IMG/VR virus record: IMGVR_UViG_3300014720_000030
Span: 11,547 to 75,546 of that record
Origin: a virus
DNA length: 64,000 nucleotides
Reading direction: 5' to 3' (one strand)
This document shows, in pieces, positions 4,180 to 54,770 of this stretch. A program made the position numbers and the translations under genes. The notes beneath the pieces were generated by a model that saw only the letters and a program-made list of their open reading frames with translations, did no database searches and was not told the origin of the DNA. Positions within the stretch are counted from its first letter, which is position 1. The number at the start of each line of letters is the position of its first letter.

Positions 4180-5535
4180 TTATAATTCAATCCATTCATT
4201 GGATGGTCTAAATTTCATTATCCATTCATCTCCTCCTCCACCACCATTATTCCAATAGCAGTGTCCTACAATTCTAACATATCCTGATGCAGGTACGGTT
4301 GTGTCCATTGTGGTTCCAGAACCTGACTTGATATATATTGGAAGGCCATAATCTGCATTATCGACTATAGGATACGGTGATCCAACAGAAACTACTACAT
4401 CACCTTCTATTATAACAGAACCAGTTTGTGAAAATATGTTTTTAGCTATTCCTAGCATTTTTGTTGAAGAGTCTGTAGTCTGATCTACTTGATACCATTG
4501 ACCGTCTGTGTTTAAATAAACCAAATCATTATCAACAACATTTGCATCAAAATACGACTCCCCTAGAATTTGTCCAGCATTATTGTTGTTTGCAAACAAA
4601 TTGACTCGTGTAGCTTCCCCAACGTATTGTTGATTGTACAAAAATGTTTCATATGTTCCCGAAAAACCGTTCCAATCCAATGCAGTTACACCAGTTATGT
4701 CTAATAATCCTCTATTTCCGAAATCTATACTAGCGCTAGCACCCTGGAATGGTGATCCATATAATTTGCGTTCATAATTTATATCATCTACTTTGATAGC
4801 ATCATATGGACCCATGTCGGGAATAAATGGTGGAGAACCTGGAATTAAATCTCCTCGTACAATGAATGACCCAGATTCTATAATTACACCTGATTGCCAA
4901 TTAAGTACTGGGTATTCACTACTGTTTTTAAGTTGTCGGGTACCCCAATCTATAGAAGTTCTAATTCCAGTAGAATCGACAGTCCATCGATTCTGCCAAT
5001 CGATTGAGGTTTTAGCGCTAGTATCAATCGCAATTCGGTCTTGCCAATTAACAGAAAGACTAGAACCAGTGTCTCGCAATAGTCCTGCATTCCAATTGAC
5101 TGTAAAATCGCCTGGACCATTATCAAACTTAAGCAATCGATTATTCCAATCAACAGATTGTGATGCATTTGCATCATACATGCTTCGTAAAACGTCCCAA
5201 CGCACCGAAAAATTTCCATTGGAATCAAACAATGTTCTGCTATCCCAATTCACAGAATCTTCCGTGCTGCCTGGTATAGGACCAGATCCAATCAATATTT
5301 TATTGGTACCATCGATACTGTCTAACACACTGAATGATCCAGTTACTCCTAATGAACCTGTAATCTCTGCACTTCCGGTGTATGGAAATGCAGGTGTACT
5401 TGGAGCATACGAAGCAGATAATGCTTGTGTTGCGTATGAAGCAGTACCTAATAAACTTCCAGTTATGCTTGGAGCATACAATGAATTTAACGTGGCATCA
5501 GAGCCAGACGTTATGATCTTTTTCCATGATGGCAT
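4180..5535 (-). CDS. Tail fibre/virion appendage protein with S(V/I)(N/D)W repeats
   Basis: MPSWKK start, TGS/SAS-rich shaft, about 8 imperfect 15-17 aa repeats SVNWxxRxLxD. Confidence 0.65.
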   Translation of the reverse strand: MPSWKKIITSGSDATLNSLYAPSITGSLLGTASYATQALSASYAPSTPAFPYTGSAEITGSLGVTGSFSVLDSIDGTNKILIGSGPIPGSTEDSVNWDSRTLFDSNGNFSVRWDVLRSMYDANASQSVDWNNRLLKFDNGPGDFTVNWNAGLLRDTGSSLSVNWQDRIAIDTSAKTSIDWQNRWTVDSTGIRTSIDWGTRQLKNSSEYPVLNWQSGVIIESGSFIVRGDLIPGSPPFIPDMGPYDAIKVDDINYERKLYGSPFQGASASIDFGNRGLLDITGVTALDWNGFSGTYETFLYNQQYVGEATRVNLFANNNNAGQILGESYFDANVVDNDLVYLNTDGQWYQVDQTTDSSTKMLGIAKNIFSQTGSVIIEGDVVVSVGSPYPIVDNADYGLPIYIKSGSGTTMDTTVPASGYVRIVGHCYWNNGGGGGDEWIMKFRPSNEWIEL

Positions 5536-5550
5536 ATCATTTTCCTTTTG

Positions 5551-5612
5551 TGTTGTGGTTGGTTACAGACACTTATGCCGTGCGTGTGCCCACTTCCTTG
5601 CGGCCTACAACA
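5551..5612 (-). ncRNA. Candidate structured cis-regulatory leader RNA
   Basis: GC-rich island between late promoter and SD; TGTTGT/ACAACA closing stem, CC-GCAA-GG hairpin, GGCAC/GTGTC stem. Confidence 0.5.
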
Positions 5613-5618
5613 TTTATA

Positions 5619-5626
5619 ATAAATAT
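5619..5626 (-). promoter_or_regulatory. Putative late promoter ATATTTAT
   Basis: Octamer 6 nt upstream of the structured leader. Confidence 0.7.
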
Positions 5627-5809: not shown

Positions 5810-6640
5810 TTAAGAATAAATGTAAATATCTCCACTCAATGTATCAACATGAATTGTACCATGGCCATTGCCTGAGCCACCGTATATTGGTGCTGGAGAT
5901 GGTGCAGCTGTGCTTGTTTCTACTGCTCCTGCATATACCGACGGTACAAATGAATTGCCCGTGGCATCGAATGATGAAGTAAATCCCCATCGCGTAGTAC
6001 CAGAATCATATCCATACAATTCACCAATATTTTGAGTACCTTGTTGTACAACAATACCACCATCTCCTGCAGTATTAGATCCAGATGCAAACAATACAAA
6101 CCGATCTGCAACAAGCAAGTTTGCAGTGTTTTGAAATGATGCAGTACCTAATACAACCAAATCGCCTGTCAATGTTAATCCAACAAACGACGGTGAATCT
6201 GTTGTTTCTAATCCTAAATCGATTGTCGACCCAGCTACGCCATTTGTTGTTAATAAAGCCTGACCCTGTCCTGGGCTAGATAACACTGATGCAGATACTA
6301 CTGTACTACCTGCTAATATTTGTGTTTGAGTTACGCTACCACCTAATGATGTTGCATTACCTGCAATTGTTATAGATGAATTTGCTAAACTACCATTTGG
6401 AATGCTACCTAATGTAAATGTAATTGTATCTGAACCGGCATTTCCTGAAATATCTAATCCGGCGCCAGATGCAGATGCAAATGTTAATGTATCTACTGCA
6501 CTATCTGCTAATACATTCGTACCGTTAATGGACATCGTAACAAATGAATTTTGTGCAGTTACTGATGTTAAATATCCAGCATCATTATTTAATTGGGAAA
6601 TATTACTTCCCGATACTACTACTTTTTTCCAAGTTGCCAT
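5810..6640 (-). CDS. Tail fibre-like virion protein
   Basis: MATWKKVVVSGS start, Gly/Ser/Thr-rich beta-type sequence; late promoter at 6661-6668. Confidence 0.65.
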   Translation of the reverse strand: MATWKKVVVSGSNISQLNNDAGYLTSVTAQNSFVTMSINGTNVLADSAVDTLTFASASGAGLDISGNAGSDTITFTLGSIPNGSLANSSITIAGNATSLGGSVTQTQILAGSTVVSASVLSSPGQGQALLTTNGVAGSTIDLGLETTDSPSFVGLTLTGDLVVLGTASFQNTANLLVADRFVLFASGSNTAGDGGIVVQQGTQNIGELYGYDSGTTRWGFTSSFDATGNSFVPSVYAGAVETSTAAPSPAPIYGGSGNGHGTIHVDTLSGDIYIYS

Positions 6641-53529: not shown

Positions 53530-54117
53530 ATGAAAAATATTTTATCAGAAAACATGTTGCGTTTCGGAACCAAGAATTTATCCGAAGCTGCACAACAAGA
53601 ATTGGTTGTCAAATCAATCATGGAAACCATTGATCATCATGGATTGCATGGCGCCGTTAGACGAAGGCTGATGGAACAGACTGTTCCTGGGGATGTAACA
53701 ACGTACGTTGAAAACTACCGTAAGGCCGTTATAGCAGCTTTTCCGAATACGTTTCAAGATGTACCGGGAAAAACCGATAACAACGGATACATACCGTTTC
53801 CCGGAAATAACCCTCAAGAATACATATATGTTTATACAAATGGAGCAGTAACATTGCCTAACGATAAATTAAAATTATTGAAACAGCTACAGACTGTGCA
53901 CGATAATGTTGTATTAAATGGCGTTAGCGATAACAACCCAAAATTACGTACGGCTATTGCTAATCTTACGAAAACCGCTTACGCACCCGAAACGGCGCAA
54001 GGAATAGCATTAAAATCATTTGATCAAAACAAGATTATAGATATGAACCAAGCATTTTTGACTTATAAAGCATTTTTGGAAAAGCAAAACCCATCAGGTG
54101 CACCAACAAAAAATTAA
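53530..54117 (+). CDS. Putative internal head protein with conserved ~50 aa leader
   Basis: MKNILSENMLRFGTKNLSE...RRLME leader shared with next gene. Confidence 0.7.
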   Translation: MKNILSENMLRFGTKNLSEAAQQELVVKSIMETIDHHGLHGAVRRRLMEQTVPGDVTTYVENYRKAVIAAFPNTFQDVPGKTDNNGYIPFPGNNPQEYIYVYTNGAVTLPNDKLKLLKQLQTVHDNVVLNGVSDNNPKLRTAIANLTKTAYAPETAQGIALKSFDQNKIIDMNQAFLTYKAFLEKQNPSGAPTKN

Positions 54118-54155: not shown

Positions 54156-54770
54156 ATGAAAAATTTACTTTCAGAAAACATGCTGCGGTTTGGAACCAAA
54201 AATTTATCCGAAGCTGCACAAAGAGAATTAGTTCTCAAATCAATCATAGAAACTATCAATGAGCATGGTTTACACAACGAAATTCGCAGTCGATTAACGG
54301 AAGCACAATCAACATACGAAGGTAGTATGGATTCGTTATATCAAGGTCTCGTAAATGCACTTAATAAACCGCTAAAGACACATCAAACAGCAGACCCAAA
54401 AGATACTAAATATCTAAGCGTAGATAGAAAAAGTTTCAAAGTATGGGCTTGGGGCAAAAAAGGTATCGGAAAACCTGCGGACCCTAATATGCAAGGCATA
54501 ACTGATGCAGAATATTATCTTATATTAGGGCCTCAAGGTTCAAAATCTCCACTAGACGAGTCGATAACATATTTAAGTACATTAATGAGTAACTACATGG
54601 GCGGGGTGACGGGTCCACAAAGGGTAGGGCAGAAATTAACCGAATTTTTAAAGAATTTTGGTTTAAAACACCCAAAAATTACTCCATCGGTTGGTTTGCC
54701 TGTTATTACTGCTTGGGTAAAAACTTATGAAACGGTGCCACCACCAAGTAAAGCAGGAAAAAAACCTTAA
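54156..54770 (+). CDS. Putative internal head protein with conserved ~50 aa leader
   Basis: MKNLLSENMLRFGTKNLSE...SRLTE leader, unrelated C-terminus. Confidence 0.7.
   Translation: MKNLLSENMLRFGTKNLSEAAQRELVLKSIIETINEHGLHNEIRSRLTEAQSTYEGSMDSLYQGLVNALNKPLKTHQTADPKDTKYLSVDRKSFKVWAWGKKGIGKPADPNMQGITDAEYYLILGPQGSKSPLDESITYLSTLMSNYMGGVTGPQRVGQKLTEFLKNFGLKHPKITPSVGLPVITAWVKTYETVPPPSKAGKKP

Follow-up and report, generated by a model that had tools for sequence, protein, structure and literature searches.

The closest described counterparts of the RNA reported here are structured leaders that act in cis at the start codon of a single gene. The leader of phage T4 gene 32 contains a pseudoknot, and in E. 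coli the rpsO/S15 pseudoknot traps the 30S subunit. To our knowledge, hardly any phage structural gene has been found to be controlled by a structured leader, and for tail-fibre genes there is no described case; a literature search for an RNA motif of phage fibre genes returned nothing specific. The T4 gene 32 leader is discussed by Fremin et al. (2023; PMC10690425), who reported 8,495 anonymous candidate structured RNAs from IMG/VR. In the glutamine-I riboswitch, which is compared with the element below, the terminal pairs of the P1 helix contact glutamine (PMC6698751).

Here we analysed a 64,000-nt stretch of viral DNA (the window), which is part of a 75.5-kb IMG/VR contig with an estimated completeness of 45% and a G+C content of 0.34. 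Its minus strand carries a 62-nt element just upstream of a fibre-like gene. As detailed below, relatives of this element precede the same class of gene in well over 100 viral contigs, fold alike, and probably bear on how translation of that gene starts.

Locus organization

Every gene in the region around the element lies on the minus strand, and an 824-aa tail sheath is encoded beside it. Read along this strand, the order is a 58-aa ORF, a promoter-like ATATTTATT box, five bases, the element, a 15-nt spacer and the ATG of the fibre-like gene (Table 1). A sequence-only reading of the same DNA had picked out a GC-rich transcript amid A/T-rich intergenic DNA, placing it between a late promoter and an AAGGA motif. 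The transcript it quoted is indeed the minus strand of 5551-5612, and both flanking signals are where it put them, ATATTTATT upstream at 5626-5618 and AAGGA downstream at 5547-5543. The compositional claim is likewise borne out: the G+C content of the element is 0.52 against 0.34 for the window, and the 90-nt gap at 5536-5625 has, at 0.41, the highest value among intergenic gaps of at least 30 nt, the others ranging from 0.07 to 0.33.

Table 1. Features of the leader and the adjoining genes, in window coordinates
Feature	Position	Strand	Basis
Small ORF, 58 aa, three predicted helices	5626..5802 (stop 5628-5626)	-	ORF family upstream of the RNA
Promoter-like box ATATTTATT	5618..5626	-	matches ATATTTATW; overlaps the final base of the small-ORF stop codon
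Three-way-junction leader RNA (P1-P2-P3), 62 nt	5551..5612	-	CM and MFE fold
P1 5' strand: UGUUGU (5612-5607), bulged A (5606), GG (5605-5604)	5604..5612	-	covariation
P2 hairpin CC-GCAA-GG, minimal form, GNRA loop	5596..5603	-	comparison with relatives
Joiner J2/3, AAG	5593..5595	-	constant among inspected copies
P3 arm	5560..5592	-	covariation
P3-loop GGCAUA, complementary to the start-codon region	5574..5579	-	complementarity
Joiner J3/1, A (5559), and P1 3' strand CC (5558-5557), ACAACA (5556-5551)	5551..5559	-	covariation
Spacer with Shine-Dalgarno-like AAGGA (5547-5543)	5536..5550	-	sequence
UAUGCC (base -1, AUG, first two bases of the Pro codon), proposed pseudoknot partner	5531..5536	-	complementarity
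Start codon ATG of the fibre-like gene	5535-5533	-	
Fibre-like virion protein gene, 451 aa, starts MPSWKKIITSGS (MPSWKK)	4180..5535	-	shared N-terminus; annotation of the immuto homologue

The earlier reading had also implied a T4-type TATAAATA promoter. What stands before the element is instead the phage's own box, ATATTTATW, of which the window holds 26 copies (12.0 expected), 22 of them on the minus, gene-bearing strand. Its distance to the ATG is usually 14-27 nt; before the fibre-like gene, with the element in between, it is 83 nt, so that the element is an insertion into an otherwise short leader. By its position, the ATATTTATT box is a candidate promoter. More broadly, the gene orientation of ATATTTATW and its placement 14-27 nt before many structural-gene starts mark it as a candidate late-promoter element in this lineage of phages.

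Other occurrences of these signals are recorded here for completeness. Sites of ATATTTATW include 1025, 3587, 6660, 9996, 19025, 22903, 36379, 38394, 46835 and 63229, and elsewhere the box likewise precedes most leader RNAs of the short-arm and long-P3 classes (defined below). Two tandem paralogous ORFs of 195 and 204 aa (53530-54117 and 54156-54770, plus strand) run opposite to the structural genes; they share near-identical N-termini (MKN[IL]LSENMLRFGTKNLSEAAQ), and each is preceded by a ATATTTATT box or an AT-rich leader. Shine-Dalgarno-like AGGAG or AAGGA strings stand before many late genes of the window, for instance upstream of 9980, 10978 and 3566, and a strong UAAGGAG is found in all related long-P2 contigs. 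The nearest cultured relative infects Flavobacterium, a group that mostly makes no use of Shine-Dalgarno-like boxes.

A three-way junction maintained by compensatory changes

The minimum-free-energy fold of the window copy coincides with the family consensus. It contains the UGUUGU/ACAACA stem, the CC-GCAA-GG GNRA hairpin, the third arm and the AAG joiner, all of which had been recognized from the letters alone. At -17.5 kcal/mol, however, its energy does not beat that of shuffled sequences (z = -0.43, and -0.19 in a second run). Single-sequence folding energy was accordingly dropped as evidence, and the support for the fold is comparative.

In the consensus, P1 consists of five to six AU-rich pairs, a one-base bulge and two G-C pairs, and P2 follows directly. 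P3 opens with U-A, G-C and G-C pairs, continues past a 1-2-nt bulge on the 3' side with G.U and C-G, and ends in a variable stem-loop. The joiners of the junction thus measure 0, 3 and 1 nt, and its invariant unpaired nucleotides number four in all, AAG and the single A. P1 is weak and AU-rich and ends 8-12 nt before the AUG. In the window copy, UGG at the base of P3 (5592-5590) pairs with CCA (5562-5560) next to an AA bulge (5564-5563), positions 5589-5582 pair with 5572-5565 with one C.C mismatch, and the loop ACGGCAUAA occupies 5581-5573; the Shine-Dalgarno-like box is unpaired.

Pairing exceeded that of shuffles in each of three alignments. In the hand-picked set of 43 copies, 96.2% of cells were paired compared with 84.4% in shuffles; in the CM-aligned set A2 (86 copies) the values were 97.2% and 83.7%, with slid controls at 22-52%, and in the protein-ascertained set A3 they were 94.8% and 81.1%. 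Double changes occurred in 13 of the 18 pairs in set A2, and compensatory changes in 12-13 of 18 across the sets. The core pair 49-99 illustrates the pattern: in set A3 it is G-C in 31 sequences, A-U in 27 and broken in none, giving UGG/CCA in some copies and UAG/CUA in others. Elsewhere in P3, the G.U pair has become A-U in nine sequences, C-G has been replaced by U-A, and the distal pairs are fully covarying.

The other two helices behave similarly. Seven P1 pairs are formed in 94-99% of copies; compensatory swaps there include GG/CC to GA/UC and A-U to G-C, alongside the one-sided change of U-A to U-G, and one position samples AU, GC, UG, CG and UA. P2 ranges in relatives from 2 to 9 bp with wholly different sequences, such as CCCGAAAGGG and CUUCCGAAAUGGAAG. 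AAG and the single A were invariant among the inspected copies, and the bulge bases of P3 vary. The element therefore has a conserved secondary structure backed by covariation. The earlier reading had proposed leaders of homologues as the place to look for covariation; those leaders are conserved and carry compensatory changes in well over 100 viral contigs. The match of CM R1 to positions 5549-5614 (51.8 bits, E = 2.8e-14) was confined to the minus strand, which, together with the conserved G.U pairs, places the constraint on the RNA strand and not on the DNA.

One copy per genome beside one class of gene

We found 134 distinct copies of the element in viral contigs. Among loci gathered through the fibre protein alone, the same architecture recurred upstream of ATG-CCN-(AGY/TCN/AAY)-TGG-AAA-AAA. 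A pattern scan for the core returned more than 119 stretches, about 90 of them real copies before MP[S/N]WKK genes. Since such a scan starts from the RNA, we also employed a coding-start scan, which is independent of the RNA and avoids ascertainment through it. Among its 131 distinct MP?WKK starts, 65 had the strict core, nearly all others had variant cores, and about 12 lacked the motif. Overall, about 90% of these starts carry the element 12-24 nt upstream. The motif-less ones are mostly MPTWKK or MPQWKK paralogues, often sharing a contig with a motif-bearing gene. In 132 of the 134 copies, 12-24 nt separate the junction from the ATG, and there is one copy per genome, as in the window and its contig.

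Copies of the family are plentiful in contigs of marine and freshwater phages. A tblastn search of 50,697 cultured phage records with the fibre N-terminus identified Immutovirus as the sole carrier, and blastn of the element region against the same records gave no match. Flavobacterium phage vB_FspM_immuto (NC_055915.1, a complete 160-kb genome) has one copy at 137890-137947, flanked by a 74-aa ORF and by gp052, annotated as ‘putative tail fiber-like protein’, in the same three-gene arrangement. In a pattern scan of 185,579 prokaryote species genomes, true copies appeared on three short MAG contigs, and the other matches were almost all due to chance. The three contigs are probably mis-binned phage, so no host was inferred from them. 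Taken together, comparative sequence data strongly support the assignment of the element to a large, uncatalogued family of three-way-junction RNAs of about 55-70 nt.

The leader RNA is better conserved than the protein encoded downstream. The N-terminus shared by the fibre family reads MP[S/N]WKK..SGS; the proteins can be aligned over their first 20-80 residues at most, and family-wide conservation covers 20-30 residues. The 451-aa protein of the window had no sequence match in Pfam, PHROG or PDB, and an Atlas search with it retrieved anonymous viral clusters only. Upstream of the RNA, an ORF of 40-110 aa is present on the same strand in about 120 of the 134 copies. The core of 69 aligned small ORFs is helix-G-helix, with L-[TS]-x-x-E-[IL]-x-F-x-L ... 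[IF]-x-G ... K-L-Q. AF2 modelled the 58-aa protein of the window as three helices (pLDDT 78); the protein belongs to no PHROG family, and the model has no significant fold match in PDB.

Several neighbouring loci show further arrangements. Directly upstream of the small ORF, the window encodes a paralogous fibre-like protein at 5810-6640 on the minus strand (MATWKKVVVSGS, MATWKK start). This gene has an ordinary short leader, in which a ATATTTATA box precedes the ATG by 20 nt and the RNA element is absent. In two other contigs, L105 and L045, free-standing homing-endonuclease genes occupy the expected fibre start site. The first is a 241-aa GIY-YIG-like ORF directly behind the leader RNA (L105:10300-11316, minus strand), and the fibre ORF that follows it lacks an MPSWKK start. 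The second, an 81-aa HNH ORF (L045:1500-1862, minus strand), starts MPN, as if it had taken over the first codons of the fibre gene, which lies 245 nt downstream (MPSWRK). Three further loci (L131:11542-11651, L284:3955-4064 and L324:2386-2503) contain a conserved insert of about 110 nt between the leader RNA and the ATG. Its hairpin stem shows compensating changes (AUGG..CCAU versus GGG..CCC), and the insert may be a second structured element in tandem.

Arm loops complementary to the start codon

The 134 copies could be parsed into three subclasses, 75 with two short arms, 27 with a long P3, the window included, and about 28-30 with a long P2. In the long-P3 class, P3 is about 11 bp and the loop is ACGGCAUAA. 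In the window, the GGCAUA segment of this loop (5579-5574) could form a duplex of -8.9 kcal/mol with the complementary UAUGCC around the start codon (5536-5531). Complementarity of 5-8 nt anchored on AUGCC at the start codon is seen in 24 of the 27 members, and complementarity of at least 6 nt was observed 24 times against about 6 in shuffles. Two features of the coding start go with this loop: position -1 is U in 25/27 long-P3 copies and in 53/107 others, and the rare Pro codon CCG, which extends the helix to 7-8 bp, is used in 5/27 and 7/107, respectively. In one member (L308) a C-to-U change in the loop faces a CCA codon. In two others (L036 and L057), the loop ACUCACU is complementary to AGUGAGU in the spacer, a purine-rich stretch at the expected ribosome-binding site.

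The long-P2 class has a constant apical loop, UGGC(A), on covarying stems, with 5-7 nt of complementarity to UGCCA(AA) in 23 of 30 copies. The layout around the element also differs between classes. In long-P2 copies only 0-2 nt separate P1 from the stop codon of the small ORF, with no promoter-like box in between, making the RNA intercistronic, and the AAGGAG box runs partly into P1. In the class of the window, the gap between the small ORF and the RNA is 14-30 nt and contains a ATATTTAT box. The spacer after the final CC is about 21 nt in the long-P3 subclass compared with 15-17 nt in the short-arm class.

Judged by complementarity, three arm-loop solutions appear to aim at the initiation region, and in two-fifths of the family the loops would be able to cover the start site. 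In contrast, the short-arm class, which is the largest (75/134), has no general complementarity between loop and start codon, so that a pseudoknot cannot be the family-wide mechanism; the excess of GGCA/GCAU in this class (19/75 versus about 6) is modest and explicable by relatedness. Within the subclasses the loops and their AUGCC target barely vary, and covariation of the pseudoknot therefore rests on very few events; AUG-CC is, moreover, also fixed by the conserved Met-Pro. An alternative pairing, between CCAAC of the motif and GUUGG in codons 3-4, was rejected because it does not survive a change of the Ser/Asn codon and is for the most part imposed by the Trp codon.

A putative gate on fibre-gene initiation

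We think it rather likely that the element is a cis-acting gate on initiation of fibre-gene translation. Its position and orientation are constant beside the start of one gene class, and a conserved junction, a weak P1 near the AUG, a start site that could be masked and the link to one gene fit a gate of this kind. In the proposed model, the folded junction would hold P1 inside the ribosome landing zone and, in the long-arm subclasses, the loop/start-codon pseudoknot would lie there too, so that the folded leader would keep initiation on the fibre message down. A factor recognizing the invariant junction, whether a small ligand or a protein of phage or host origin, could then open or lock the gate. 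Where the stop codon of the small ORF abuts P1, ribosomes terminating on that ORF might open it instead; in the long-P2 class a terminating ribosome would have to unwind P1. Alternatively, the leader might receive no input and serve as a fixed attenuator that sets fibre stoichiometry. The sequence-only reading had proposed an undescribed cis-regulatory RNA, sensing a ligand or a protein, that controls one appendage gene. Its regulatory part is well supported, the element being conserved and covarying before MP(S/N)WKK genes, strand-specific, present once per genome and without an Rfam match. As to the sensing part, the data equally allow ligand or protein sensing, a gate opened by ribosomes finishing the small ORF, and a fixed attenuator. 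Conservation of the junction beyond what a plain attenuator would need nevertheless implies a partner.

Four other explanations of the element were weighed against this gate. Improbable in our judgement is a metabolite or ion riboswitch, in which the invariant junction would form the ligand pocket, P1 and the loop/start-codon pairing would form the expression platform, and fibre output would follow a host metabolite. In its size, its three-way junction, its combination of an invariant junction with variable arms and its position at the start site, the element resembles a typical translational riboswitch, and the segment made of P2 and the following GGAAGU resembles glutamine-I riboswitch sequence (PMC5393176). 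Yet the unpaired invariant nucleotides number only four, four copies matched no Rfam riboswitch at E <= 10, neither the E-loop of glutamine-I nor its ligand-contacting P1 pairs are present, and a structural gene offers no obvious metabolite logic. We give still less credence to a passive 5'-terminal or intercistronic fold that would stabilize the fibre mRNA or mark a processing site without gating initiation. A 5' stem could protect the message, and the RNA begins a few nucleotides after a promoter-like box in the window and in most short-arm copies; however, long-P2 copies directly follow the upstream stop codon and hence are not 5'-terminal. Stabilization, moreover, would require neither invariant joiners nor loops aimed at the start codon, and the fixed distance to the ATG points to initiation.

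That the element is a small self-cleaving ribozyme, cutting the late transcript before the fibre gene, would agree with its compact junction and conserved joiners and with the many small ribozymes found in phages, but we regard it as very improbable: Rfam ribozymes gave no match, joiners of 0, 3 and 1 nt are incompatible with the hammerhead core (CUGAUGA...GAAA), and very few unpaired bases are invariant. Hardly credible is a DNA-level recombination or homing site for swapping fibre modules. The leader and the first 20 codons do form a conserved block before highly variable fibre bodies, and L105 and L045 have homing-endonuclease genes at exactly this place. Endonuclease insertion would nonetheless be expected at any conserved DNA and leaves the pairing unexplained, whereas compensatory changes preserve the helices, as do G.U pairs, which would be A.C on the opposite strand, and the CM matches one strand only.

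A bolder reading, which we consider unlikely, is that the junction is a sensor. By binding a second messenger, a metabolite of the host or a protein of phage or host, it would tune the amount of one receptor-binding fibre per virion to the condition of the infected cell. If it held, it would represent RNA-level control of host-recognition hardware, for which there is no described precedent, and a response to a cellular signal would tie the composition of the virion's host-recognition apparatus to host physiology. For the gate itself, three ways of aiming a loop at its own start site would amount to a clear and testable mechanism, and Flavobacterium phage immuto provides a cultured model. The element also offers an interpretation of the oddly invariant Met-Pro start of these fibres, in which AUG-CC would be constrained by RNA pairing as well as by the protein.

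Relation to described RNAs

The earlier reading could not assign the element to a known riboswitch or ribozyme, and the Infernal search it called for agrees: an Rfam 15 cmscan at E <= 10 with four copies (the window, immuto, a long-P2 copy and a GUAGG-type copy) matched no family beyond chance. The only row returned, a hairpin-ribozyme hit at chance level, scored 10.4 bits where the gathering score is 65. Membership among the small self-cleaving ribozymes (hammerhead, twister, pistol, hatchet and HDV-like) was rejected, as neither an Rfam match nor a catalytic core was found. Kink-turn, k-junction and sarcin-ricin readings of the core were likewise discarded, the required G.A pairs or AGUA/GAA strings being absent.

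Two riboswitches bear a partial resemblance to the element. Glutamine-I (RF01739; 5DDO/5DDP) is, like the element, about 60 nt long and a three-helix junction with a hairpin followed by GGAAGU; it too occurs in aquatic microbes and is likely to control translation beside a start codon. It was rejected because there was no CM match and both its E-loop and its conserved P1 are absent. In place of the E-loop AGUA/GAA, the U(G/A)G that follows AAG in the element pairs with C(C/U)A, and the 3' joiner is a single A. The P1 of the element is AU-rich and variable, whereas in glutamine-I the P1 sequence CGUUC/GAACG is conserved and holds the ligand. The two also differ in gene context, a fibre in one case and nitrogen metabolism in the other. 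The c-di-GMP-II riboswitch (RF01786), also a leader RNA, resembles the element locally in the GAAGUGGG and AACCA strings. It too was set aside, as its CM matched none of four copies at E <= 10; the element is much smaller, and neither a kink-turn nor a long-range pseudoknot of the c-di-GMP-II type was found in it.

The candidates of Fremin et al. (PMC10690425) share the data source of this family and, like the element, are covarying motifs within 25 nt upstream of a phage gene. The family may be among those 8,495 unnamed candidates, and the main text of that paper nowhere mentions tail or fibre genes. The family is apparently undescribed, and its status as a real structured RNA is strongly supported by the comparative sequence evidence.

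By function, the nearest analogues would be the leaders of T4 gene 32 and E. coli rpsO, in which, as proposed for the element, a structured RNA lies in cis at the start codon of a single gene and the initiation region is paired. The element differs from both in its three-way junction, has no sequence relation to them and no known cognate protein. Products of the gene 32/rpsO type are nucleic-acid-binding proteins able to autoregulate; the gene that the element would control, in contrast, encodes a virion fibre.
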